A stretch of 64,000 bases of DNA. Source: Candidatus Scalindua arabica (lineage in GTDB: Bacteria > Planctomycetota > Brocadiia > Brocadiales > Scalinduaceae). Positions within the stretch are counted from its first letter, which is position 1. Every line of letters starts with the position of its first letter. The notes under the pieces were generated by a model. It saw nothing but the letters and a program-made list of their open reading frames with translations, did no database searches and was not told the origin of the DNA. The DNA is taken from the NCBI GenBank assembly GCA_018263435.1, contig JAANXD010000074.1, positions 9,197-73,196 on the forward strand, read 5' to 3'. The position numbers and the translations under genes were made by a program. Of this stretch, positions 5,735-57,539 are shown in pieces.

Positions 5735-5750
5735 AGCATATCACGTGCCA
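5735..5750 (-). promoter_or_regulatory. candidate sigma54 (-24/-12) promoter for the Cys-rich protein/HZS genes
   Basis: The minus strand reads TGGCACGTGATATGCT. GG and GC are spaced exactly as in the consensus TGGCACG-N4-TTGCW. It is about 40 nt upstream of ATG 5696 and adjacent to an NtrC-type activator gene. Confidence 0.5.
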
Positions 5751-5935: not shown

Positions 5936-7324
5936 TTAGTTATTATCGTATTTTTCCAATCTATACCTGAATGTTCCCCTGGTAAGACCCAGCAACTTAG
6001 CCGCCTTAGTTTTATTGTTTTTGCTTTTCTTCAGCGCCTGCAAAACAAGGTGCTTTTCCAATTCATCTATTGAAATCCCCTCTGGCGGCAGATTAAAATC
6101 CACCATCTTTAATACATTCCCTTTACCATTCTCATAGCCCGACACAGAATCCCTAACTAAAGCCAGCGGAAGATGTTCTTCTGATATCAAGTCACCCTTA
6201 CTCAGGATTACGGCTCTTTCCAGGCAATTTCTCAACTCCCTCACATTGCCCTCCCACCTGCTTGAAACAAGTATCTTTTCTACTTTCTTTGTCATTTTTA
6301 ACGATAGTTTACCCATTTTAACAGAAAACTGCTCAACAAAGTCCCGTGCTAATGGCAAAATATCCTCAGGCCTTGCCCTGAGTGGAGGTATATTTATTGG
6401 AAACACATTAACGCGATAATATAAATCCTCTCTAAATTGACCTTTTTTAACATACTCTTCAAGATTTTTATTACTGGCACATATAATCCTTACATCAACT
6501 TTAACTGTTTCCGACCCTCCAAGCCGCTCCAGCTCTCTTTCTTCAACAACTCTTAACACTTTGGCTTGAACAATGGGATTCATTTCCGATATTTCATCGA
6601 GAAACAGAGTGCCTCCGTTAGCCAACTCAAAACGGCCTTTCTTGCATTTCTCTGCACCAGTAAATGCACCCTTTTCATAACCAAACAATTCACTCTCTAA
6701 TAAATTCTCAGGCAACGCAGCACAGTTTATCGTAACTAATGGGCCGCTCTTCCTTAAACTATTAAAATGGATGGCCCTTGCTACAAGCTCTTTCCCCGTA
6801 CCACTTTCTCCATAGATAAATACGGTAGAATCCGTTCTGGAAACATCTCCAGCTAATAAAAGCACTTCTAATATCTTAGGTGAATTACCAATAATATTTC
6901 CAAAATTATAATGCGACTCTAACTCCTTTCGAAGATACCTGTTTTCCATTGTCAAAGATCTCATTTTCAGGGCTTTTTCTACTGCGACAGAAAGCGTACC
7001 ATCTTCAAATGGTTTTGTAATGTAATCAAACGCTCCTTCCTTCATCGATTCAACCGCCGTCTCGATGGAGTCATCCCCTGTCACAACAATCACAGGCAGT
7101 TCAGGATCCATTGACTTCACCTGTTTCAAGAATTCTAATCTGCCCACCTTGGGTACTCGCAGATCAGTAATGATTAAATGAAGCCTTTCGTGCTCAACAA
7201 AATCAACTATCGAAGTTACGTCTTGCGCCTTAACAACTTCGATATTTTCCATCTCGTCAAAAATAACCTTGATATTGCGTATTATACGTTCCTCGTCATC
7301 AGTTATCAGCACCCTGCTAACCAT
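5936..7324 (-). CDS. sigma54-dependent response regulator (NtrC family: REC + AAA+ + Fis-type HTH)
   Basis: 462 aa: REC with DDEE and [15 protein letters not shown] Walker [16 protein letters not shown] (GAFTGA loop), and a C-terminal [20 protein letters not shown]. Confidence 0.9.
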
Positions 7325-9514: not shown

Positions 9515-10258
9515 TTAATCGTTAGGCGGACTTGTCTTATACCACGGATCCTGCTCTATGTACCCCTTCCATTTCTTTTTATCCACCTTAGGCAAAACGT
9601 CATCTATAGCATCATGGTCTCTGTGATCGTCTCTCTTAATGTAATCTTTAGTGAAGATCCTGTCATTACCTTCGCTGTTTTTTGTACCTTCGCACTTAGG
9701 GCACTTATTCTTGGCCTTTGCATCTTCCCAGTGGCATTGTAGACATTGCTCTTTTATTGTCTTGTACTTATTTATGCCGGCTACGAGCAAGCCAGCATCG
9801 TATTGCGCTTTTCTGGCCATCATTGGGTCTTCCTTTAACAGCTTTTTAAATGCGTCTTTACCCTTCTTCTTGTAATTTTTCTTTACCTTAATGTATCCCT
9901 CTCCCGGACCGTGACATGCTTCACATCCAACGTTTTCAATAAAGTTCTTACTACCCTTCTTAGACTTCCCCCTCTTTATCTTCATACCCAACGCTGTGGC
10001 ATGGCATTTCAGGCACTCAGGATTACTCTTATCTTCATCGGTTTCTAACCTTCTAAAAGTATTATAATGCTGATTCTTCATCTTCTTGTATTCTGTACCT
10101 TCAAAACAGCCCTTTGACAAGTGGCATTTACAACCTGAATTACTCATGAATTTCCACTTCTGCTTTGCGCCAAAACTCTGGCTACTTTGAAAGATTATAA
10201 GCGACAAAGAAAGAACTACAGACACCATGATAAATCTTCTTAAATTACAACCGAACAT
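9515..10258 (-). CDS. soluble tri-haem cytochrome c (electron-transfer module)
   Basis: 247 aa with a signal peptide, CLKCH, CEACH and CLQCH, plus an N-terminal CKCH. It is Lys-rich. An SD AAGGAGAAGGGGG lies upstream of ATG 10258. Confidence 0.8.
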   Translation of the reverse strand: MFGCNLRRFIMVSVVLSLSLIIFQSSQSFGAKQKWKFMSNSGCKCHLSKGCFEGTEYKKMKNQHYNTFRRLETDEDKSNPECLKCHATALGMKIKRGKSKKGSKNFIENVGCEACHGPGEGYIKVKKNYKKKGKDAFKKLLKEDPMMARKAQYDAGLLVAGINKYKTIKEQCLQCHWEDAKAKNKCPKCEGTKNSEGNDRIFTKDYIKRDDHRDHDAIDDVLPKVDKKKWKGYIEQDPWYKTSPPND

Positions 10259-10503
10259 ACTATTACCCCCTTCTCCTTAAGCTTAATGCAATTGTTATCT
10301 TATTAATCTCTTACCGACAGATTTTTCAATAAAAAATAGTGTGGCCAGAATGTGCCAGTTACCCTTTTTTATTGGATCGGGATTTTATCAAGACCATTTT
10401 ATTGTGTCAAGAAAAAATTATAAATGTTGTTTGCAATGTAGAAACCCGGCATAAGGCTTGGAATTTAAACACGTTACAGTGTGGTTTAAATGCTTTGTTG
10501 TTG

Positions 10504-28612: not shown

Positions 28613-28718
28613 ACAAAATAAGTGCTGGCATTTTTATAAATACCGGGGCGTTAGTTATTATGCCAAATCCACATGCTATCTTTGATCCCAATTTCATATT
28701 CTTAAACATCTTTAACAT
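28572..28718 (-). CDS. 48-codon upstream ORF overlapping the kinase start, out of frame
   Basis: AAGGAGG lies 8 nt upstream of ATG 28718. The product MLKMFKNMKLGSKIACGFGII... resembles the N-terminus of MCP-type sensors. Confidence 0.3.
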   Translation of the reverse strand: MLKMFKNMKLGSKIACGFGIITNAPVFIKMPALILFGCSENEGRYDSV

Positions 28719-29384
28719 CTTTTAGGCCTCCTTTTCATGGCCAAAAACCATGCAATTTGCAATATTTCAGTTTATTCCTGAAAACATGGCAAATTATGAT
28801 TTAAAAACAGACGGAGAATTTGAACAACTAAAACAGGGCTTTATGCCCTGTCAGAATTGCACAATGGCGGAGATTGTTTTCCATGGCTGACTGGGCAAGA
28901 TTATAAAAACGCCGGGCTGTTTCCAACCAGGCGTCAAGCGCTTCAGAGAAATATCTTTGGCGCTTACAACCATGAAGTATTGAATAAATAGTGATATATG
29001 ACCCGGCGCTGACAAAGACACCGCATGTGTCAGCCAGCCTGACTATGTACAGAAAAAATGGGGGGGGGGTAACACGTAGGTACACAAAGAGTTATGATAT
29101 TTTTTTGTGCTGCAGGGCAATTTGTATTGTCCATAGTTTTCTTCATTGCGCATTGGTGGTTTTGTTTAAGTGGTACTGGTTGTTCTGGATTAAACATAAA
29201 AAAAATGCGGCGCACATTTCGGCATCTAACAAAACGCGCAGTTTCGCATTACAAAATCACTTCTGATTTGGACGTTACATCTAGTCAAAACACATTGCAA
29301 CAGCTTTTATTTCGTATACGTCCAATGTCCAATTGATTGTATAATACAGATTAAAAATCTGCAATTCAAGTATATTTTTATTTA

Positions 29385-29552
29385 ACCTGAATTGAGCGAT
29401 TTGTAGCCGCATCCTTTAGGTTGCGTAGCTTACGAGAAATTCACATCAACCCGCCAGATGTTGAGAAACGCAGGCTACCCGCCTGAAAGACGTAGTCGGG
29501 CAGGAAGCCTGTAGCTACTAGAATATAGAAAACAAAATCGCTCAATTTAGGT
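29385..29552. mobile_element. MITE-like repeat, family A (full copy)
   Basis: About 168 bp with terminal inverted repeats ACCTGAATTGAGCGATTT / AAATCGCTCAATTTAGGT. An internal hairpin reads TGTAGCCGCATCCTTTAGGTTGCGTAGC. Confidence 0.55.
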
Positions 29553-29665
29553 CTTAATTAATGTTTCTCTGGCCCATACACTTTATTTAAAATAAGATTA
29601 TGAGACTTGTGAATATCTGCTGCGAAAATCGGGTCTGGCAACAGGCATAAAATTGTGAAGGGGTG

Positions 29666-29756
29666 GGGGTCAGACCTCAACATTTGACATAAATTCGATG
29701 AATCTCTTTAATAAACCTTATAAAATTGTTAATGTCAAATGTTGAGGTCTGACCCC
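29666..29756. mobile_element. MITE-like hairpin element, family C copy 1
   Basis: 91 bp with perfect 25-bp arms GGGGTCAGACCTCAACATTTGACAT / ATGTCAAATGTTGAGGTCTGACCCC. It differs from 35177-35267 at one position. Confidence 0.7.
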
Positions 29757-29971
29757 ATTTTCTTGGATTATTACCACACATAGACTCGGAAGACCCTCCG
29801 ATGGCAAAGAGATTCAAGGCGATAATGACGCGTCGCCCTTCAGTAGAAAGGATGATAAAACGACTGAAGTGTGATATTAGTGATGATCGTTTAAGCAAGA
29901 GAGGTGATCTCTCATTTCAGGCGTACTTGGATAAGACGATGATTGCTTTTCATCTCTTGTTACAGAATTGA
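29753..29971 (+). pseudogene. DDE transposase C-terminal remnant
   Basis: The open frame ends ..MAKRFKAIMTRRPSVERMIKRLKCDISDDRLSKRGDLSFQAYLDKTMIAFHLLLQN. This is the R..VE..I..LK...R.RG...A.NL-like tail typical of IS4/IS5-type transposases. The 5' part is missing and it abuts MITE C1. Confidence 0.4.
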
Positions 29972-30166
29972 ATTGAGGATTTTAAAAAGTATTGACAGAA
30001 GCAATCAATAGGTAATTTACCATATATCTGTAAAACGAACACGAAGAAAAGGCATATCGCGAGGTATGATCAACTATGCAAAACGTCAAATACACACTAC
30101 AGATCCCAAATGATGAATATAGAACATCTTAGACAACATCCATAACTCTACATTCAGTGTTCGCAA

Positions 30167-32961: not shown

Positions 32962-34158
32962 TTACCTCTCCAATCTACACTTTTCACTCTCTGGTGAGTA
33001 TCCTGCATCATTTCCATCGAGGCTTATTAATAACACTGTTTCATCATCAAGGCTAACATCCTTATTATTTGTGAATGAAGCATGTTCAACCCTATTAGAC
33101 TGTTCTTCTTGTAGACTCTGCATATTCTGCAAGGCACTGTCAATCTTCTGCTTTATCAAGGCACCTTCTTCCATAATTCTTGACATTGAATTACTTCTTG
33201 ATAACATCAATTTGTTTTCATAAGAATAAGGAATTGTACTTTCAACTAAGTCAATTTCCGATGAAACGCCTAACGGGCAAGGGTTGTCCTCCAGTATTTC
33301 TGTCTCTCCGTCCGGTGCTATCATCGAACATACCAGGTTATTCCCGCTATTTACATATTTAATAACTCTCTTTTTCTTATCAACAAGCACACATAACATC
33401 GACACTTTGACATGAGGGATAATATTCTCGCACAAAAATTTATTTATACCGTCCATTACTCTTTTTGGTGTATTCCCTGCCTTTGATCTAAATAATGTCT
33501 TAATCATTATTCCTATCTGCCTGTTTTCCCACCATTCCCTGCGATGTTCACTTTGGCCATTAATATTCCCGAATATCAACATTGATCTGTTATTGCTAAC
33601 GGCAAAAGAATCAAAGACAACTGTACTTTTAGGTTGACATGCCGGACCATCAAAGTAATAAGACATACCGCCCGGTTTCAAAAGGTTATCAGTTTTTGAT
33701 AATTGCTCACTGTCATTGCACTGTAAGTGGCGGTCTTCTTCTTTATCTGTGCCCTTTGAGATACTGGAATTATTGAGCATCCTTAAGAGAACGTCTTTTA
33801 TTTCCTGTATCTTGAAAGGCTTGCTGATCATCTCAACTACACCCAGTTTTGCCGCTTCTTTGACTGTTTCAAGAGAACCATATGCCGTGATAATGACTAT
33901 TTTCAAATCAGAATCACTCTTCTTCACCTCACGTATTAATTGGATACCATCCATACCACGCATCTTAATATCTGTTATAATTAAGTCGTATGGCGCCTCC
34001 TTGAAACGCTCCATAGCCTGAAAGGCATCCCGAGCCACGTCTACCTTATAACCTTCACTGGCCAAAGCCTCCTGTAAGACGTATCTGATTGTCTCTTCAT
34101 CATCTACCAACAAGATCCTGTTATTTACCATATCACTTATTCTCTTACTTGTAGTCAA
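32962..34158 (-). CDS. response regulator with a C-terminal SpoIIE/PP2C-like domain (catalytic residues degenerate)
   Basis: 398 aa. The REC domain is intact (LLVDDEE, ITDIKMRGMDG, SKPF). The C-terminal domain aligns to the SpoIIE pattern (Y.N.G.N...DG...L...PLG) but has GGMSYYFD, GNINGQ and SRSN where metal-binding Asp motifs are expected. Confidence 0.7.
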   Translation of the reverse strand: MTTSKRISDMVNNRILLVDDEETIRYVLQEALASEGYKVDVARDAFQAMERFKEAPYDLIITDIKMRGMDGIQLIREVKKSDSDLKIVIITAYGSLETVKEAAKLGVVEMISKPFKIQEIKDVLLRMLNNSSISKGTDKEEDRHLQCNDSEQLSKTDNLLKPGGMSYYFDGPACQPKSTVVFDSFAVSNNRSMLIFGNINGQSEHRREWWENRQIGIMIKTLFRSKAGNTPKRVMDGINKFLCENIIPHVKVSMLCVLVDKKKRVIKYVNSGNNLVCSMIAPDGETEILEDNPCPLGVSSEIDLVESTIPYSYENKLMLSRSNSMSRIMEEGALIKQKIDSALQNMQSLQEEQSNRVEHASFTNNKDVSLDDETVLLISLDGNDAGYSPESEKCRLER

Positions 34159-34359
34159 CGACCACCGGCATAGCCGGGGGACTTGAGGAGCCCCCCCCTA
34201 AAAGGGGTACTAATCTAAAATATTTTCCCAACCATTTTATTCTTCTGAAAGTCTGAGCCTGAAGAATGATTCTGCTTTCTGGTTTCCTTGCCGGTTCAAA
34301 ATAATCCAGACAAGTGAGAACAAAAATATGCTCCTCTCTTTCGAGAGGATTCCAACACT

Positions 34360-34530
34360 GGCAGCCCGCCTAATGCAGACCGTGTCACAATAGCAAAAAC
34401 GGCCAATTTGTCATCCTCATCTTCTGAACTTGTTTCAGGATCTAATGTTTACAACGACTTAGCAACTTAAGAGATCCCGAAATGAATTCGGGATGACAAT
34501 TGTGACACAGCCTAATGGCTGGCGGTTAAA
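34360..34530. repeat. composite palindromic repeat (GTCATCC..GGATGAC type nested in CCGCC..GTGTCACAAT arms)
   Basis: The left arm CCGCCTAATGCAGACCGTGTCACAAT and right arm ATTGTGACACAGCCTAATGGCTGGCGG flank GTCATCCTCATCTTCTGAACTTGTTTCAGGATC...GGATGAC. Coordinates are approximate. Confidence 0.4.
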
Positions 34531-34611
34531 AATGACAAAACATGCATTTTTGTTATTATGACAACAGCCTCCAGATAGTCTGTGGCGACTGGAACGCACT
34601 CAAGAAACTTA

Positions 34612-35115
34612 CTACTTACTGGAAAATGCTTTAAAAAGATCCTTAACAATACATTCCAGACGGTCAACCTCTTTAAAAATCATCCTGAAGATTCTTTCGT
34701 TTGAATCATCTTTCTCCACTCTCTCCCTTAACACTTCTACAGCAGCAGAAATACCAGCCAGAGGATTTCGTACTTTATGAGTAACAATACCCATCAATTC
34801 GTTCAGGTCATCAAAATATTCAGTTTCCTTATACTTGTCTACTATCATCTTTATTCCTTCATCATCACTTAAATCAACACCCGACTTCTCTCCACTCCCT
34901 GAAGATTCAATCTGCTTGTTCAATGCAGCAGACAATTCCTCCTTCGAGATTAGGTTCATATTGACAAGGATCATCCCCAGGAGCTGATGATCAGGATTGT
35001 CTTTTTGCATACTTAATGCTTTTTGAACATCAGAACTCTTAACCTTGCCGTCTTTAACTAGAATCTCTCCAAGTTTCTTCTGACATAATTCAGTATCTTC
35101 TTTGACATTGATCAC
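34612..35115 (-). CDS. stand-alone MshEN/T2SSE_N-like motif pair fused to a HisKA dimerisation/phosphoacceptor domain (no ATPase domain)
   Basis: 167 aa, GTG start. It carries KLGEILVKDGKVKSSDVQKALSMQ and LLGMILVNMNLISKEELSAALNKQ, then an H-box VTHKVRNPLAGI. The ORF ends before any HATPase_c motifs. Confidence 0.65.
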   Translation of the reverse strand: MINVKEDTELCQKKLGEILVKDGKVKSSDVQKALSMQKDNPDHQLLGMILVNMNLISKEELSAALNKQIESSGSGEKSGVDLSDDEGIKMIVDKYKETEYFDDLNELMGIVTHKVRNPLAGISAAVEVLRERVEKDDSNERIFRMIFKEVDRLECIVKDLFKAFSSK

Positions 35116-35176
35116 TTTATATCATTTCCTTTTCTAATTGTGCATATTGTTAATCGAAACCAGTGTTGCATGGGGG

Positions 35177-35267
35177 GGGGTCAGACCTCAACATTTGACA
35201 TAAATTCGATGAATCTCTTTAATAAACCTTATAAAATTGTTAATGTCAAATGTTGAGGCCTGACCCC
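35177..35267. mobile_element. MITE-like hairpin element, family C copy 2
   Basis: Near-identical to 29666-29756 and preceded by a G9 run. It lies 11 nt downstream of the NtrC-type gene stop codon (35279). Confidence 0.7.
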
Positions 35268-35278
35268 ATTTTCTATTT

Positions 35279-36676
35279 CTACTGTTTAATACCATAATGC
35301 TTTATCTTGTTATATAAAGTGGTACGGTTAATACCCAGTATCTTAGATGCCTTGGTCATCCGCCAGGAAGTCTCCTTAAGGATTTCTGTTATATGTTGTT
35401 TCTCAACAGTTGAAATAGACTGATCTACCTCTTCATCCTGCCCAATATCGTTCATTTCTGACTCGGGCCCCAGTAACAGGTGCTCGGCAGAAATTGCAGA
35501 ATTATTTGAAAGAAGAACAGCTCTTTCAATAACGTTTTTCAGTTCTCTCACGTTTCCAGGCCATTCATATTTTTTCAAAATAGCTTTTATTTCCGGTGTC
35601 AGGCCATTGACTTCCTTATTGAATTCTTTATTAAATTTATCAATATAGTGTTTTGCAAGCGGGACGATGTCATCCTTCCTTTCCTTCAATGCACACAAAT
35701 ATACCGGCAAGACTTTCAGGCGATAAAAAAGATCTTTCCTGAAATTCCCTTTCTTTACTTCCTCTTCCAGATTCCGGTTTGTCGAAGCAACTATCCTTAC
35801 GTCTACATTTATAACATCGTCCCCACCTACCCTCTTAAACTTCCTTTCCTGAAGCACTCTCAGCAGTTTTGCCTGTAATGGCAAACCCATCTCTCCAATC
35901 TCATCAAGAAACATGGTGCCTCTCTGGGTGGCTTCGAACAGACCGGCCTTTCCTGTAGTAGAAGCTCCTGTAAAAGAACCCTTTTCATAACCAAACAACT
36001 CGGCTTCAAGCAGGTTCTCTGTCAGTGCAGCACAATTAATCTCCATAAACCTGTACTTATTTCTCGCACTCATCATATGAATATAGTTGGCAATCAACTC
36101 CTTACCTGTCCCACTCTCTCCCTGTATAAGCACCGTACTTGAAGGGCTCTGTGCAATTACCTTTACATGTTCAAAGATCTTTTTCATTTCTTTACTAACG
36201 GCAATAATATTAGCATTACCTGTAACATCTGTTTTTTTCCTTAGCCTTAATACTTCCCTCATCAGAGATTGAGTACTCAATGCCTTATCAACCACAACCT
36301 TGACGTGTTCCATCTTAAACGGTTTCTCAAGATAATCGAATGCCCCTGCTTTCATTGCGCTTACTGCAGTGTCAACAGAACCATGACCTGTTAAGAGAAT
36401 TACGAGTATGTTCGGATCATGCGCTTTTATTTCCCTTAATAAATCCAGGCCACTCATTCCGGGCAACTTTAAGTCCAATATAACCAGGTCAGGAATCACC
36501 TTCTTTACCAGGCTTAAAGATTTTTCCCCATCCTCCTCCGTGTATACTTCATGCCCTTCAGACTCCAATGCCTCTTTTAAACAAAACCTGATTGTTTCCT
36601 CGTCATCCACAACTAAGATTACGGGCTTTACGCTATCCTGGCTTTCCGCATTTTTAACCGATTTTGTTTCTTTCAT
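35279..36676 (-). CDS. sigma54-dependent response regulator (NtrC family)
   Basis: 465 aa: [26 protein letters not shown], and a C-terminal HTH KASKILGINRTTLYNKIK. Confidence 0.92.
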   Translation of the reverse strand: MKETKSVKNAESQDSVKPVILVVDDEETIRFCLKEALESEGHEVYTEEDGEKSLSLVKKVIPDLVILDLKLPGMSGLDLLREIKAHDPNILVILLTGHGSVDTAVSAMKAGAFDYLEKPFKMEHVKVVVDKALSTQSLMREVLRLRKKTDVTGNANIIAVSKEMKKIFEHVKVIAQSPSSTVLIQGESGTGKELIANYIHMMSARNKYRFMEINCAALTENLLEAELFGYEKGSFTGASTTGKAGLFEATQRGTMFLDEIGEMGLPLQAKLLRVLQERKFKRVGGDDVINVDVRIVASTNRNLEEEVKKGNFRKDLFYRLKVLPVYLCALKERKDDIVPLAKHYIDKFNKEFNKEVNGLTPEIKAILKKYEWPGNVRELKNVIERAVLLSNNSAISAEHLLLGPESEMNDIGQDEEVDQSISTVEKQHITEILKETSWRMTKASKILGINRTTLYNKIKHYGIKQ

Positions 36677-36793
36677 TTAACCCTCTATTCTAAAATAAAT
36701 TTTCTTTCCTTATTTGGTAGCCTCTAATTGCCATAAAAAAATGCCTATATCTTATACATAATGTTGTATAAATATACAATGTTTTTGTATCAA

Positions 36794-36924
36794 TCCATAA
36801 AAGGGGACAGGCTACTTTTTTGCCTAATATATCCTATTCGCTACTTCTCCGTTATCTTTTAAAAGATTTTACTCCATACTCCCCATCACCTTTAACAAAA
36901 AAGTAGCCTGTCCCCTTTTATGGA
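36794..36924. mobile_element. MITE-like repeat, family B copy 1
   Basis: 131 bp with perfect 25-bp terminal inverted repeats ATAAAAGGGGACAGGCTACTTTTTT / AAAAAAGTAGCCTGTCCCCTTTTAT. It abuts the stop codon at 36925. Confidence 0.65.
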
Positions 36925-38136
36925 TCAGGGATTAAGCTTATCAAGTTTGCCCTTAGCCGCCTTAATCTCATCTATGTTACGTGCATATCTAACGCATTCC
37001 TTAAGATGCTTTTTGACTTTATCTGGTTGGTTTCTCCTCTCAAATATTTCGACCAGAACAAAATTTATCTCGTAGCTGCCTTTGTGTTTTTCGAGTGATT
37101 TCTCAAAGGCCTGTATCGCTTCATCTTCAGAACCACTATTTAAGTATAATAACCCAAGTTCTTTATAACGACCGGCAATATTCATGGGATACACACTCAG
37201 TGTCTTTTTATATACATCAATAGCTTTATTATAATCGCCTCTCTTAGTATAAATCTTTGCCATTTCATCGAATGGATCAAAACCGGAAGTCAAAAATACT
37301 TCAAGTACCTTCTCGTCAAAATTCTGATCCAAACGCCTTAAGACCATCACACCTTCACCCAGAATCTTATCTTCTAATGAGGAATTCTCCTCTTTGCTGG
37401 TTCTGGTTAGATAAAGTACTATCAATGAGGCACGTATGCCAATTGCATCACCGGTAATCGAAAGTATTTCTCTCAGCTTCTTTTCAGACACATCAAAGGT
37501 ATATTGGCCCTGATTATATAACCCTATAATACTTAACGCATCATCGTATGCATTTCGTTCTCGGCAGAAGTTCGTTATCTTTACAGATAACTCCTTCAGG
37601 ATGCTGGTTGACAATTCTTCAGGGTTACCCTCTACGGCAACAAAACCTAATGTTTCCTTCTCCTTAACACCTACTATTTCAGCATCTATTCTCAAACTGC
37701 TTCCTATTAAAGAGATGTTACCTTTCAGAACATAGTCTGACTTCAATTGCCTGCCAAATTTCTTGACCGTTTTCGTATTCAACTTTGCCCCAGCATCCAC
37801 CTGATCTGCTGACCAGGCCCCACCAGAACTAGTAATATTGTCGACATTTATATCCTCACTTAATGTCACCGTACTAACCTTCTCATAAATAATTTCCCTG
37901 TCTATCGGCTCAAAATACCCTGTCTGTGTAAACATACTTCTTAATGCATCTGGAACAACTTCTTCCATGTTCATCTGGGCATAATCCTTGAACGGCAGAA
38001 TAACAATCTTGTAACTCCTTTTCGCATCGCAATTTTGGCTGACAAAAGCTACAAGAATGAAAACAATTAACACCGTTTTAATACCAATCGCCATTCTTAA
38101 TAATCCCCTTATTTTGTATAAAATATTCATTTTCAC
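36925..38136 (-). CDS. exported protein with C-terminal TPR units
   Basis: 403 aa, GTG start, N-terminal hydrophobic anchor. TPR-like units in the last 120 aa. Confidence 0.65.
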   Translation of the reverse strand: MKMNILYKIRGLLRMAIGIKTVLIVFILVAFVSQNCDAKRSYKIVILPFKDYAQMNMEEVVPDALRSMFTQTGYFEPIDREIIYEKVSTVTLSEDINVDNITSSGGAWSADQVDAGAKLNTKTVKKFGRQLKSDYVLKGNISLIGSSLRIDAEIVGVKEKETLGFVAVEGNPEELSTSILKELSVKITNFCRERNAYDDALSIIGLYNQGQYTFDVSEKKLREILSITGDAIGIRASLIVLYLTRTSKEENSSLEDKILGEGVMVLRRLDQNFDEKVLEVFLTSGFDPFDEMAKIYTKRGDYNKAIDVYKKTLSVYPMNIAGRYKELGLLYLNSGSEDEAIQAFEKSLEKHKGSYEINFVLVEIFERRNQPDKVKKHLKECVRYARNIDEIKAAKGKLDKLNP

Positions 38137-39195: not shown

Positions 39196-39537
39196 CTATA
39201 TCAGGCCGGAGTTCTTAATTGACCTGGCAACTTCCTTAGTAACCGCATCAGGGTCGTAAATACCAGCTTCTATGCGGGCCTTAACATCCTTTACTTTTTC
39301 CTCTCTGACATCAGGCATATTCTTAATTTCTGCCTTTAAGGTTGATAGTGTTTCCTGTAACTTTCTGGCTTCAGCGGAAATCTCTACTTTGTCTCCTTCT
39401 TTTGATACTTGCACTTCCTTAGAATAACCGGATGCAGCTTTTTTAATATCCCCCGGCTTTGTAAGATTTTTATTACCAATAACCTTCCCAACTTGACTAT
39501 TATTAATTCCCGCCATTTTGTCTACAGACATTTTCAA
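39196..39537 (-). CDS. flgM: anti-sigma-28 factor FlgM
   Basis: About 111 aa (ATG 39531 is likelier than TTG 39537). Small acidic/Lys-rich protein whose C-terminal VKARIEAGIYDPDAVTKEVA matches the FlgM sigma28-binding helix pattern. Confidence 0.65.
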   Translation of the reverse strand: MKMSVDKMAGINNSQVGKVIGNKNLTKPGDIKKAASGYSKEVQVSKEGDKVEISAEARKLQETLSTLKAEIKNMPDVREEKVKDVKARIEAGIYDPDAVTKEVARSIKNSGLI

Positions 39538-43018: not shown

Positions 43019-45124
43019 ATGAGCAAATCTAACGAAGAAGATGTACAGAATACCAGTCCTGGAAGTGATGAACTTACTCTTGATATTAAAGAAGATTCAG
43101 AGATATTCCTGGAATTTTTGTCAGAGGTCCAGGACCATCTGGAAGATTCAGAAAGCAATGTACTCAGTATTGAGGATGACGCCTGTGACTATGAAACAAT
43201 CAATGCTATCTTCAGAAGCATTCATAGTATAAAAGGAAGCGCCGGGTTTCTTGGACTTACCCAGATGCAGGGACTCAGCCATGAGTTGGAAACACTGCTG
43301 GACAAGGTAAGAAAAGAAGAGATCAGCATGTCACAGGAGATAATAAACGTATCATTAAGCTCAATAGACTCACTTAGAAAACTCCGGGACAATCTGGAGA
43401 TCAGGGTTGACAGAGAACTTGGAAATGATAAGGACTCTGACTCCTCTCCCCAGGAACAGCCTGTAAATATCCAACCTTTAATAGATACTATATTATCCAT
43501 ACTAAATAACGAAAGTAAACATGAAGAGGCAGTACCGGAATCTCCTCAAGAGATAACAGACAAAATCATCAACTCAGAACCTGAAGAAGACTCAGGGGAA
43601 GCCGTGGAAGATCAAGAATCATCAGAAAGCGATTGCCTGGGTGGAATACTTCTGGATGAAGGCGCAATTACTCAGGAGCAACTGGACAAGGCCCTTGATG
43701 AACGAGGCAAAAAGATTGGGGAAATACTCGTAGAAGAAGGAGTAACAACTGCAGAAAAGGTAGAGAACGCTCTTGATGAACAGAAATCAATAGGACAAAT
43801 CCTCACCGAAAAAGGTGAAATAACAGAATCCCAGCTTGCCGGTGCACTGAAACAGCAGGAAAGAAAAGTAGGCGAAATACTCGTAGATAGCGGCGCAACA
43901 ACTACAGGCGATATAGATACTGCATTAGAATCCCAACAAAACAAACGAAAGACAAAGTTACAGTCCAGAACAGTTAAGGTTGATACCGCCAAGCTCGACA
44001 ACCTGTTCGACATGGTAGGAGAACTCGTAATAACCAATACCATGATTTGCGGAGAAGCCAATTCAGCAGACAATAACGGTACGAGCAAGAACCTGTCTCA
44101 ATTAACCAAGATTACCAAGGATATTCAGGATCAGGTTATGTCCATGAGGATGGTCACCTTGAAACAAACATTTCAAAAGATGTCAAGGCTGGTAAGAGAC
44201 GTTTCTTTGCAATCTGGAAAGAAAGTTAAATTACAGATTTCCGGTGAAGACACAGAACTCGACAAGAATGTAATCGAAGAACTCGCAGACCCACTTGTAC
44301 ACATACTCAGAAACTCAATAGACCATGGTGTTGAGGCTGAAGAAGACAGGGTTTCCAAAGGCAAGCCGGCAGAGGGCCTGGTGAAGTTAAGCGCCTTCCA
44401 TAGAGGAGGAAACATAGTAATAGAGATTCAAGACGACGGCAATGGGATTCGGAAAGACAAAATATTACAAAAAGCCATAGATAGAGGAATGGTAACCAGC
44501 CAGTCATCCTTAACAGACAATCAGATATACAATTTAATCTTTTCACCCGGACTATCAACTGCAGCCAAGGTTACAAATATTTCAGGCCGAGGTGTAGGCA
44601 TGGACGTGGTAAAGAAAAATATCGAAAAACTCCGCGGCACTGTTGATGTTACATCAGAAGAGGGAAAGGGATCTACCTTTACCATTAAGCTGCCTCTAAC
44701 CCTTGCTATTATTGATGGAATTGTCGTTAACGTGGGCGACACAAAATATATTATACCAACTGTTTCGATAGAAGAATCATTGCGTCCAACCAAAGAAGAC
44801 ATCAGTACAGTCAAGAATCAGGGTGAAGTGGTTAACATAAGAGGTAGTTTGTTATCTCTGGTCCGCCTCCACAAACTTTACAATATTGACACAGAAAAGA
44901 CCAATCCATGGGAATCAATAGTCGTAGTAGTAGAAGGCGCCGAAGGAAGATATGGTGTATTGGTCGATGAACTCCTGGGACAACAACAGGTTGTGATTAA
45001 GAGTCTCGGCGACAGGTTTAAGGATGTTAAAGGAATTTCAGGAAGCGCTATACTTGGTGACGGAAGAGTCGGTCTGATTCTGGACGTCAGCGGAGTAAAA
45101 GAAGCATTTATTGGAAGTAATTAG
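43019..45124 (+). CDS. cheA: chemotaxis histidine kinase CheA with an atypical linker (four MshEN/T2SSE_N-type motifs in place of P2)
   Basis: 701 aa from ATG 43019. It has Hpt (RSIHSIKGSAG), P3 (LDNLFDMVGELV), HATPase (GRGVGMDVV, GKGSTF) and a P5 CheW-like domain. Confidence 0.93.
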   Translation: MSKSNEEDVQNTSPGSDELTLDIKEDSEIFLEFLSEVQDHLEDSESNVLSIEDDACDYETINAIFRSIHSIKGSAGFLGLTQMQGLSHELETLLDKVRKEEISMSQEIINVSLSSIDSLRKLRDNLEIRVDRELGNDKDSDSSPQEQPVNIQPLIDTILSILNNESKHEEAVPESPQEITDKIINSEPEEDSGEAVEDQESSESDCLGGILLDEGAITQEQLDKALDERGKKIGEILVEEGVTTAEKVENALDEQKSIGQILTEKGEITESQLAGALKQQERKVGEILVDSGATTTGDIDTALESQQNKRKTKLQSRTVKVDTAKLDNLFDMVGELVITNTMICGEANSADNNGTSKNLSQLTKITKDIQDQVMSMRMVTLKQTFQKMSRLVRDVSLQSGKKVKLQISGEDTELDKNVIEELADPLVHILRNSIDHGVEAEEDRVSKGKPAEGLVKLSAFHRGGNIVIEIQDDGNGIRKDKILQKAIDRGMVTSQSSLTDNQIYNLIFSPGLSTAAKVTNISGRGVGMDVVKKNIEKLRGTVDVTSEEGKGSTFTIKLPLTLAIIDGIVVNVGDTKYIIPTVSIEESLRPTKEDISTVKNQGEVVNIRGSLLSLVRLHKLYNIDTEKTNPWESIVVVVEGAEGRYGVLVDELLGQQQVVIKSLGDRFKDVKGISGSAILGDGRVGLILDVSGVKEAFIGSN

Positions 45125-54914: not shown

Positions 54915-56276
54915 TCACTCATCCTTTGACCATTCTTTGATCTTATATTCAATCTTTCGCGTTGAAATACCGAGTATCTTTGCCGCCTTTGATTTACTAC
55001 CATTGGTTGTTTGAAGTGCCTCAATGATAACCTTCTTCTCTATCTCCTTCATAGTTGCTCCCGATGGGATACGAAAGGTTTCTTTTCTGGATTTCTTAGA
55101 ATTCACATTAATATTTGAAGGAAGATCGCCTGGTTCTATATATTCATTTCTTGCCATTACCACAGCTCTTTCGATTGCGTTTTCAAGTTCTCTGACATTA
55201 CCGGGCCAGTCGTAATTATTCAACAACTTTGCGCTCTGCGGAGTAATGCCCTTAATATCTTTCTTGTTCTTTTTTGAATATTTTACAAGAAAGTTATCTA
55301 TCAGCAATCCAATATCTTCTTTCCTCTCTCTTAATGACGGGAGTTTCAGGTTGATAACATTTAATCTATAGTATAAATCTTCCCTGAATCTTCCCTCCTT
55401 GATCTCTTCCTCCAGGTCTCTATTTGTTGCAGCAATAATTCTAACGTCTGATTCAAAGGTTTTTTCACCACCGACTCTTTCAAATTTCCCGGTTTCCAAA
55501 ACTCTTAACAGTTTGATTTGAATATGTGAATTCATCTCTCCCACTTCATCAAGAAAGAGACTGCCTCCATTAGCCAATTCAAACCTGCCCCGTCTCTGGC
55601 TTACCGCACCGGTAAAAGCACCCTTTTCGTGCCCAAAGAGTTCGCTTTCCAATACACCTTCAGATAATGAAGCACAATGAAGTGCAACAAATGGTTTGTC
55701 CTTTCTATCACTATTGTAATGTATAGCATTAGCAATAAGCTCCTTTCCTGTCCCGGTATCACCATAAATCAACACAGTAGCTGCTGTTGGAGCAATCTCT
55801 GTTATTGTCTTGTAAATAAGCTGAATTTCAGGCGAATTACCAATAATTCCTGAGAAATTATATTTATCATTTAATTTCTGTTTCAATTCCTTGTTCTGTA
55901 ATACCAGGAGCCGTCTCTCCCATATCTTTTTAAGTATCAATTCTAATTCTTCAATATTTACCGGCTTGGTCAAGTAGTCATCCGCGCCCTTTTTCACCGC
56001 ATCAATAGCAGTCTGTATAGAACTAAATGCAGTTATCATTACCACAGCAATATCAACATCCTTCTTCTTAGCCTTTTCAATAATGGAAAAACCACTGATA
56101 TCAGGTAGCTTCATATCTGTAATTACTATATCAAAGTGCTCGCTTTCGATTAAATTCAATGCTTCTTTGCCTGTATACGTACAACTTGTATCATAGCCAT
56201 CCTGCAAGAGAATCTTTGTCAGGCCGTCGGCTGTATTTTTATCGTCATCTACTAATAATATTCTTGGTTTCTTCAT
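54915..56276 (-). CDS. sigma54-dependent response regulator (NtrC family)
   Basis: 453 aa: [26 protein letters not shown], and an [21 protein letters not shown]. Confidence 0.93.
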
Positions 56277-56453: not shown

Positions 56454-57539
56454 TTAAGCCAAAGGTAATTCGATAATAAATTCCGCACCATTATTTAGAT
56501 CTTTAAACCTTATATTACCCCCATGAGCCTGAATAATATTCTTTGTAATAGCCAAACCTACACCCGTTCCACCACTCTTCGTAGAATGAAAAAGGTCGAA
56601 GATCTTGTCATGCTGCTCACTGGGTATTCCGGGCCCTGTATCCTTTATAGATATATTTAAATAACCATCATTATGTGAAATGATTATATTTATATTCCCT
56701 CCTCCTGTCATTACTTCTACAGCATTTATTATTATATTCAATAGCGCCTGTTTGAGTTTATCCTTGTCTACTGAAATTTGTGGAGAGTCTTTCAATACCC
56801 TTAGATATATTTTAATCCCATTTAAGTCTGCATGCGGGTTGATCAGGGCAATCAGTTCATTAAGTATTTTAACAATATCTTCTTTCTTACGTTTTAAATC
56901 ACCAGATTTTGAGAAACTTAAACAATCCTTTGCTAATTTATTCAACCTTTCAATTTCTTCTTTAACCACTTTTACAACTTCGTGAAGTTCTTTCGTAGAG
57001 CCCAACTCATGTTTATCAATTTCTCTCTGCAACAATGACATCTGTATATTAATAGCATTTAAAGGGTTCTTAATCTCATGTGCCAGTTCATTGCTATATT
57101 GCCCAAGTGTTGAAAGGGTCTTAGTCTTTACAAGTTCCTCATTAAACATTTTCTCCTCTGTAATATCACGCATAACCCCTACCACATATTCAATCTCATT
57201 GTTCCAACTCTTTATTATAGAATAATTTGTTATTACCCACTTTTCTTTACCGTCTTTAGTCTTGATAAGGTATTCGCGTGCAATCCTGGAACGTTTCTCT
57301 TCAAAAAGGTGAAGTCCCGGACATATGGTCAGATCCAAGCCGTCTGAGGAGTGACAACTAAATATATCGTGACAGCCGTAATCACTTTTCATGATTTCTT
57401 CTTTGGTAATACCCACAATCTTTTCACAAGCGGGATTAAACAATACTATCTTTCTATCCTTATCAAATATAAATACACCATCATTGAGGTATTGTAATGC
57501 GATATCCTGTATATTCTGGTCCTTAATCATGTTTGCCAC
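56454..57539 (-). CDS. cytoplasmic PAS sensor histidine kinase (NtrB/AtoS-like)
   Basis: 361 aa: a PAS domain with a Cys/His cluster, an H-box LAHEIKNPL, then N, G1 and G2 boxes (GTGVGLA). Confidence 0.9.
   Translation of the reverse strand: MANMIKDQNIQDIALQYLNDGVFIFDKDRKIVLFNPACEKIVGITKEEIMKSDYGCHDIFSCHSSDGLDLTICPGLHLFEEKRSRIAREYLIKTKDGKEKWVITNYSIIKSWNNEIEYVVGVMRDITEEKMFNEELVKTKTLSTLGQYSNELAHEIKNPLNAINIQMSLLQREIDKHELGSTKELHEVVKVVKEEIERLNKLAKDCLSFSKSGDLKRKKEDIVKILNELIALINPHADLNGIKIYLRVLKDSPQISVDKDKLKQALLNIIINAVEVMTGGGNINIIISHNDGYLNISIKDTGPGIPSEQHDKIFDLFHSTKSGGTGVGLAITKNIIQAHGGNIRFKDLNNGAEFIIELPLA

Follow-up and report, generated by a model that had tools for sequence, protein, structure and literature searches.

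In a 64,000-nucleotide stretch of the Candidatus Scalindua arabica genome (contig JAANXD010000074.1, positions 9,197 to 73,196; hereafter the window), we analysed a gene whose 167-aa product joins an MshEN_N module, predicted to bind cyclic di-GMP (c-di-GMP), to the dimerisation and phosphoacceptor (DHp) domain of HisKA-type histidine kinases, with no catalytic ATP-binding (CA) domain behind it. Judged by comparison of orthologous sequences, this MshEN-DHp gene is intact and not a broken kinase. The reading we favour, held tentatively and a little short of an even chance, is that the protein would act as a dedicated c-di-GMP-gated phosphatase of the NtrC-type sigma-54 activator encoded beside it, and probably of a neighbouring protein that combines a receiver (REC) with a PP2C-like domain (REC-PP2C), thereby tying c-di-GMP to the flagellar/chemotaxis regulon. 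Its basis is the domain composition of the protein, its completeness and conservation, the residue pattern of its motifs, the synteny of the gene and its phyletic pattern.

The MshEN-DHp protein and its family

The original prediction had described a 167-aa protein at 34612-35115 with two 24-residue motifs, a 7-residue spacer, a HisKA domain with the H-box THKVRNPL, and no ATPase domain. All of this was borne out: the gene lies on the minus strand, with an AGGA-type ribosome-binding site about 11 nt 5' of its GTG start, and the motifs are K14-Q37 and L45-Q68, separated by KDNPDHQ (Table 1). The NCBIfam model NF053729 ('cyclic di-GMP-binding domain, MshE-related') matches residues 14-68 at 44.6 bits (E 8.8e-12; cut-off 38 bits), with all 53 model positions covered, and Pfam HisKA (PF00512) matches residues 104-160 at 40 bits (gathering threshold 26.9 bits), with His113 as the H-box histidine. 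Pfam T2SSE_N (PF05157) gave no match at E <= 1 in the protein, as expected because only the MshEN_N subdomain is present. Of the hidden Markov model searches proposed with the prediction, the one for HisKA thus succeeded and the one for T2SSE_N did not, and MshEN similarity was established instead by NF053729, above its curated cut-off, and by a family profile that also finds PilF GSPII-C, PilB and MshE.

Some 35 residues separate motif II from the DHp domain; within them, residues 85-97 align to PilB and may be a remnant of the last MshEN_C helix, the rest of that subdomain being missing. A homolog, P0039, has an insertion in the Ser/Gly-rich linker region that precedes this segment. The protein stops at the end of DHp helix alpha2, with no pseudo-CA alpha/beta domain after it. 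HATPase_c was found neither in the open reading frame (ORF) nor in any frame of the 453 nt downstream; of the genome's 23 HisKA matches, the other 22 all share their frame with a HATPase_c. A decayed CA domain in the 453-nt gap was rejected, as three frames hold no kinase-like sequence and a dispersed repeat is found there instead. So was a split kinase with an orphan CA-only partner: where HATPase_c occurs without HisKA, it belongs to CheA, to large proteins or to a 221-aa frame, and no such match lies near the locus. The protein has no Hpt (PF01627) profile match, and the genome's Hpt matches are elsewhere. An AlphaFold2 model (mean pLDDT 60), used for secondary structure only, has four helices within residues 4-71; its Foldseek comparison with the PDB gave noise and no meaningful match.

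Residue conservation was taken from an alignment of 120 family members. The predicted ligand-contact residues (L15, G16, L34, Q37, L46, G47, L61, L65 and Q68) each occur in 118 to 120 of the 120 sequences, and the surface positions of the module are variable, unlike the LG and LxxxLxxQ positions. The earlier statement that both motifs fit the MshE pattern quoted there does not hold exactly: motif I has Val at position 17, where the family has Val or Ile, and motif II has Asn, not Gly, at turn position 10 (N54 in Scalindua, Ser in the sister genera; motif I has G23). Asn at the turn also occurs in motif I of Geobacter PilB in the family-profile alignment. Both motifs also fall outside the relaxed regular expression published by Wang et al. 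in 2016. In place of the canonical MshE Arg at motif position 1 stand K14 and L45, and the spacer has 7 residues versus 5 in canonical MshEN. The MshEN-type reading nevertheless stands, since both Lys for Arg and the 7-residue spacer have precedents in c-di-GMP-binding domains of PilF (PMC11731258).

Among solved structures, the family profile found PilF GSPII-C best (E 2.6e-11), and it also found MshE (E 5.5e-4) and PilB. In the profile alignment GSPII-C has a 7-residue spacer (KGLPRAK) and Lys at position 11, both as in MshEN-DHp; it binds c-di-GMP with MshEN-like affinity (dissociation constant about 500 nM), and GSPII-B, which shares K/L at the first motif positions, binds it at 6 nM (PMC11731258). 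Common to MshE of V. cholerae (PDB 5HTL), both Thermus thermophilus PilF domains and our protein are two tandem 24-residue motifs with LG and LxxxLxxQ (PMC5013675, PMC11731258). In MshE and PilF, however, the module sits on a traffic ATPase, whereas here it sits on a DHp hairpin, with MshEN_C largely missing and Asn at the turn of motif II. Among orthologs, NF053729 scores 44.6 bits in P0121 and 36.7 bits, slightly under the cut-off, in P0035. The genome has four GGDEF proteins and seven further MshEN matches, two of them in the CheA of the same window.

In the DHp domain, T-H-K-V-R-N-P-L-A-G-I is invariant in 120/120 family members; this includes H113, the Lys that follows it (K114, position H+1), P118 and N117 at H+4, the phosphatase residue of HisKA. 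None of the genome's other 22 HisKA domains has Lys at H+1: 21 read H-E or H-D, and one has Tyr for His. Both positions have been mutated in the NtrB-like kinase CrdS, whose partner is of NtrC type; there E372A at H+1 abolished kinase activity and left wild-type phosphatase activity, N375A at H+4 abolished phosphatase activity, and H371A lowered it only about 4-fold (PMC3510030). With Lys at H+1 and the Asn at H+4 retained, the H-box is predicted from these results to be naturally kinase-null and phosphatase-competent. The protein resembles HisKA kinases in the phosphatase state, such as CrdS-CrdA, HK853-RR468, EnvZ and NtrB (PMC3510030): its H-box is of the NtrB/AtoS/ZraS type (xH-x-[IV]-R-N-P-L) with Asn at H+4, its natural H+1 Lys parallels the engineered E372A, and an NtrC-type partner lies next to it. 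In contrast to HisKA kinases, MshEN-DHp is without any CA domain, and its predicted kinase-null state is natural and invariant, not engineered.

A word-indexed search returned 170 homolog clusters. Nearly all of the best 120 of these 170 are 164-173 aa long and 71-100% identical, and the few among them that are named by source are all labelled Candidatus Scalindua; in source annotations the family is either 'hypothetical' or 'histidine kinase dimerization/phospho-acceptor domain-containing', and nothing more specific. When 1.84 billion representatives were searched exhaustively, the only full-length matches were to the MshEN-DHp family, besides fragments of it; beyond the family, the N-terminal half matched repeated-MshEN proteins and the C-terminal half ordinary kinases. 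A full-length MshEN-HisKA-HATPase_c parent was rejected, as 0 of 148 non-family hits have both an MshEN motif and an H-box; a match across both halves, P0269, is an ordinary PAS kinase. In 61 related genomes, orthologs 53-87% identical occur in three genera of one family (Scalinduaceae), and none was found in other families of the order. Across the three genera they share the stop position at the end of DHp helix alpha2, and the next gene begins 5-40 nt after them, versus 453 nt in the window. The survey of the MshEN-HisKA architecture thus revealed a family conserved in Scalinduaceae, and the common stop and the 5-40 nt gaps rule out the possibility, raised with the original prediction, of a 5' fragment of a disrupted kinase.

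Natural variants also occur. A 94-aa DHp-only version (L023 in genome G020, 9998-10300) has an intact H-box in otherwise intact synteny; since one species keeps this version, the DHp is probably the effector of the family. A duplicated DHp is present on one Brocadiaceae contig; in the 265-aa variant (P0035; L004 2780-3577), where the DHp is duplicated, the first copy has lost the His. Genomes without the flagellar module hold decayed copies of 112-140 aa (L022 in G009, L024 in G004, P0122, P0123, P0125 and P0127), from which MshEN motif I has been lost, as have N117, P118 or the His (Tyr in P0127) from some; the truncated relics of two module-less genomes have lost N117 or P118. The L022 and L024 copies lie about 6 kb from a MoxR gene. 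Such truncated copies look like relics remaining after deletion of the module.

Flanking receivers and conserved neighbourhood

The gene lies just downstream of an NtrC-type regulator (35279-36676, minus), as had been noted, and the proposed link to this sigma-54 regulator was strengthened by comparison: in every examined orthologous locus that extends upstream, the gene next to MshEN-DHp on that side is the NtrC-type one, and the activator's ortholog is absent together with MshEN-DHp. Eight genomes without an intact MshEN-DHp gene (six with none, two with a truncated relic) have no ortholog of the 465-aa activator, the best hits there being 40-47% identical versus 74-94% for true orthologs. 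The REC-PP2C ortholog is absent from the six genomes with no MshEN-DHp copy, the only ones checked for it. Where MshEN-DHp is present, REC-PP2C is missing in two species (L013 and L020) and reduced to the receiver in one (L021). Its C-terminal half has a weak, partial SpoIIE match (31 bits) and matched no solved structure by sequence.

The receivers encoded on either side of the gene have strikingly similar beta1-alpha1 segments, VVDDEETIRFCLKEALESEGHEV and LVDDEETIRYVLQEALASEGYKV, which by identity are each other's closest match in the genome. The alpha1 helices of the NtrC-type and REC-PP2C receivers share the consensus DDEETIR[F/Y]xLxEALxSEG. Helix alpha1 of a receiver is the main kinase-docking surface. 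Because these docking helices are nearly identical, the DHp probably recognises both receivers, and REC-PP2C is, on this sequence evidence, a likely second partner of the MshEN-DHp protein. In one genus (g3) both receivers change in parallel (F/Y to S/C and S to G) and the DHp carries A120S at H+7; this covariation is a single phylogenetic event and suggestive only.

On the minus strand the genes run in the order FlgM, a 70-aa ORF, a TPR/LpoB-like protein, the NtrC-type activator, MshEN-DHp, REC-PP2C and two TPR proteins, and this order is conserved in three genera. A divergent plus-strand chemotaxis operon encodes CheY, CheX, a REC protein, CheA with MshEN, CheW, CheD, CheY, CheR and CheB. 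As such, the locus is predicted to have two c-di-GMP inputs, MshEN-DHp and CheA. Of 19 genomes with the MshEN-DHp gene 17 have FlhA, as against 0 of 8 without an intact copy, one genome being excluded because its contig ends at the locus (Fisher p about 2e-5, calculated by hand and uncorrected for phylogeny); the distance between flhA and the module is about 25 kb in many genomes. The best NCBIfam matches of the NtrC-type activator are the generic AtoC and NtrC. A PEP-CTERM PrsR/PrsT reading of the NtrC and TPR genes was dropped, as TIGR02915 reaches only 419 of the 502.6 bits that its cut-off requires, a score that generic NtrC models at least equal.

In other Scalindua genomes the TPR genes are followed by a full kinase of 436 aa (HK436; HisKA and HATPase_c) and a second NtrC-type gene; in this assembly that adjacent pair is on contig C59. 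The corresponding part of the window, 28613-30166, is 1.5 kb without an ORF of at least 100 aa or a Pfam match, where other Scalindua genomes have TPR240, the 436-aa kinase and the second NtrC-type gene; this points to a rearranged cluster or to a break in the assembly. That this degenerate stretch (28.6-30.2 kb) is a transposase remnant found no Pfam support and was dropped.

Proposed mechanism and its rivals

The protein would be soluble and probably dimeric, with a four-helix MshEN_N module, a flexible acidic linker and a complete DHp hairpin; it ends at the exact point where the ATP-binding domain of a kinase would start. Having no CA domain, and Lys where autophosphorylation needs Glu or Asp, it cannot be a kinase. 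The phosphatase reading follows from this want of kinase capacity together with the retained His and H+4 Asn, which HisKA proteins use to dephosphorylate receivers. That the protein binds c-di-GMP, that it is a phosphatase, which receiver it targets and in which direction c-di-GMP acts are all inferred, as follows. The protein would dock on the NtrC-type activator's phosphorylated receiver, probably on that of REC-PP2C as well, and c-di-GMP would lower expression of the motility genes controlled by the flagellar/chemotaxis locus. The sign, with the phosphatase on at high c-di-GMP, is assumed by analogy with CckA. In Caulobacter CckA is a kinase/phosphatase switched by c-di-GMP, and the likeness lies in c-di-GMP control of a HisKA phosphatase output, as proposed here (PMC5026420). 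In CckA, however, c-di-GMP acts on the CA domain of a bifunctional kinase, whereas MshEN-DHp would sense it through MshEN and has no kinase activity to switch.

The DHp of EnvZ alone was reportedly phosphatase-active in vitro in the work of Zhu et al. in 2000. Several points weigh against a phosphatase under c-di-GMP control. Many kinases need a nucleotide-bound CA domain for full phosphatase activity. In a cell assay, the EnvZ DHp alone was without phosphatase activity (PMC8971529). The invariant His is not strictly required of a phosphatase and fits phosphotransfer at least as well. On the sensor side, Asn54 at the turn of motif II is the only motif departure without a binding precedent, and the AlphaFold2 model is of low confidence. 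The co-occurrence with FlhA may be one clade-level loss or plain physical linkage, and a flagellar role for the NtrC-type activator is suggested by gene context.

Spo0B of Bacillus and ChpT of Caulobacter are dimeric DHp-type phosphotransferases, and like MshEN-DHp they are kinase-less DHp proteins with a His, placed between receiver proteins. A similar role is the main rival reading here, although we consider it fairly unlikely: His113 would shuttle phosphate between REC-PP2C and the NtrC-type activator, in either direction, with c-di-GMP gating the relay or a phosphate sink. The invariance of His113 speaks for such a relay, as does the place of the gene between two receiver proteins with nearly identical, mutually closest alpha1 helices; so do the parallel receiver changes with A120S in g3, single event though they are, and the basic residue beside the His could stabilise phosphohistidine as in Hpt domains, by analogy. 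But at least two species (L013 and L020) have lost REC-PP2C while keeping the DHp and NtrC-type genes, the genome already has a conventional stand-alone Hpt protein, and MshEN-DHp differs from Spo0B and ChpT, which keep a pseudo-CA domain and are without a HisKA-type H-box or a second-messenger input. Also against a relay, the H+4 Asn, which in CrdS is needed only for phosphatase activity (PMC3510030), is invariant. Another rival is a non-catalytic anti-activator, in which the DHp dimer would bind the NtrC-type receiver under c-di-GMP control and block oligomerisation or kinase access. Strict adjacency to, and co-occurrence with, the activator suit this, a DHp-only format is enough for receiver binding, and catalytically dead EnvZ variants still reduced OmpR output (PMC8971529); yet it leaves unexplained why His113, Lys114 and Asn117 are invariant and why they decay in relics, and we regard it as improbable.

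A shade more improbable is a heterodimeric 'poison subunit' of a full histidine kinase such as HK436, as RetS is of GacS. The presence of HK436 a few genes downstream in the same cluster of other Scalindua genomes would fit, but the DHp domains of the genome's kinases are not closely related to this one (35% identity at best, the HK436 ortholog failing E 1e-5), and HK436 has its own adjacent NtrC-type partner, with a different alpha1 helix, the pair lying on another contig in this genome. Least credible by far is a pseudogene, or the 5' fragment of a rearranged kinase. The 453-nt non-coding gap after the gene and the flanking mobile repeats might suggest it; however, a dispersed repeat makes up about one third of the gap, a CA domain is encoded in none of its frames, and with the stop common to about 170 clusters and three genera, the invariant H-box and the 5-40 nt gaps in orthologous loci, this reading is already refuted by comparative sequence data.

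If the phosphatase reading holds, MshEN-DHp could be the first free-standing HisKA DHp to have evolved naturally into a dedicated phosphatase of response regulators, through Glu to Lys at H+1 and no CA domain, and the first case of MshEN gating of two-component phosphorylation; c-di-GMP would reach a flagellar sigma-54 activator in trans, and one DHp would serve two receivers that share a docking helix. This fuller claim we hold somewhat more doubtful than the phosphatase reading itself. FleQ and FlrA are flagellar sigma-54 activators that bind c-di-GMP directly, and P. aeruginosa has the HptB-HsbR-HsbA-FlgM pathway. Common to these systems and our locus would be c-di-GMP or phosphorelay control of the flagellar sigma-54/sigma-28 hierarchy, with a small His-protein gene beside a REC-PP2C gene near flgM. 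Unlike in FleQ and FlrA, the nucleotide would be sensed in trans by the DHp partner, and the His protein is DHp-type, not Hpt-type. Known fusion partners of MshEN are REC, HD-GYP, CheA, CheX, a cyclase, a Ser/Thr kinase and the glycosyltransferase NfrB (PMC5013675, PMC8669469). In these too MshEN_N is a portable c-di-GMP input, and a CheA-MshEN fusion lies in the same window. Neither 'HisKA' nor 'histidine kinase' occurs in the main text or supplement of Wang et al. 2016, which names MshEN fusion partners (PMC5013675).

The routes by which c-di-GMP enters two-component signalling are few and varied, CckA being one example. Further ones are ShkA and RavS. MshEN is a widespread c-di-GMP receiver domain whose outputs are still being catalogued. 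A c-di-GMP-gated MshEN-DHp phosphatase, or relay, would be a clean minimal system for dephosphorylation or phosphate relay by a DHp alone, gated by a tethered nucleotide sensor. It would also give a first handle on the decision between swimming and settling in marine anammox bacteria of the genus Scalindua, which are not genetically tractable; that decision bears on their place in oxygen-minimum zones. Small and predicted to be soluble, the protein should be accessible to functional study in vitro or in E. coli.

Other features of the window

Table 1. Coordinates of the MshEN-DHp gene, its parts and the surrounding features in the window
Feature	Position	Strand	Description	Evidence
MshEN_N-DHp gene	34612..35115	minus	167 aa, GTG start; complete, conserved	ORF; domain matches; same-length homologs
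MshEN motif I, residues 14-37	35005..35076	minus	KLGEILVKDGKVKSSDVQKALSMQ	NF053729 alignment
Spacer, residues 38-44	34984..35004	minus	KDNPDHQ, 7 residues	read from sequence
MshEN motif II, residues 45-68	34912..34983	minus	LLGMILVNMNLISKEELSAALNKQ; position 1 Leu, position 10 Asn	NF053729 alignment
Acidic Ser/Gly-rich linker, residues 69-84	34864..34911	minus	probably flexible	AlphaFold2 pLDDT <50 at residues 72-82
HisKA DHp, residues 104-160	34636..34806	minus	H-box T-H113-K114-V-R-N117-P-L; His113 at 34777-34779	Pfam HisKA
NtrC-type sigma-54 activator, 465 aa	35279..36676	minus	REC + AAA+ + HTH_8; intact receiver, GSFTGA loop	Pfam/NCBIfam; synteny; co-absence
REC + SpoIIE/PP2C-like protein, 398 aa	32962..34158	minus	usual downstream neighbour	domains; synteny; co-absence
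FlgM anti-sigma-28 gene	39196..39537	minus	head of same-strand cluster	Pfam FlgM; synteny conserved
TPR/LpoB-like protein, 403 aa	36925..38136	minus	conserved upstream cluster member	
Two TPR proteins, 252 and 596 aa	30167..32892	minus	conserved downstream cluster members	
CheA, 733 aa	42923..45124	plus	two MshEN_N modules, between Hpt and dimerisation domains	NF053729 at 43637-43936
Dispersed repeat, about 150 nt	34364..34525		between DHp and REC-PP2C genes; about one third of 453-nt gap	
Palindromic MITE-like element, 108 nt	35167..35274		28-nt arms; between NtrC stop and DHp start	

The dispersed repeat in the gap after the MshEN-DHp gene has copies on more than 12 other contigs of the genome (blastn, 78-94% identity); by comparison with the other species, it is this repeat that breaks the tight 5-40 nt coupling of the DHp and REC-PP2C genes. 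The element upstream of the gene, which resembles a miniature inverted-repeat transposable element (MITE), has a second copy at 29656-29763 (96% identical), no others being found elsewhere in the assembly; it might form a hairpin that acts in transcription. Between the TPR/LpoB and NtrC-type genes lies a perfect inverted repeat (36793-36925) of 30 nt, with a loop of 73 nt, which has a sub-threshold miRNA-like Rfam match.

Scans for regulatory elements gave little. Rfam found no c-di-GMP riboswitch in 32-40 kb, only sub-threshold miRNA-like matches on palindromic repeats, and a sigma-70 promoter and terminator scan of 34000-35400 was not above the shuffled expectation. A sigma-54 promoter scan of the window gave four matches, not above chance and none in the MshEN-DHp cluster. 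A sigma-54-like match with 1 mismatch at 5735-5750 lies 39 nt 5' of an unannotated 198-aa ORF. The window regions 5936-7324, 54915-56276 and 56454-57539 (all minus strand) encode two more NtrC-type sigma-54 activators and a PAS-HisKA-HATPase_c kinase paired with one of them; the other activator has a sub-threshold FleQ N-terminal match.

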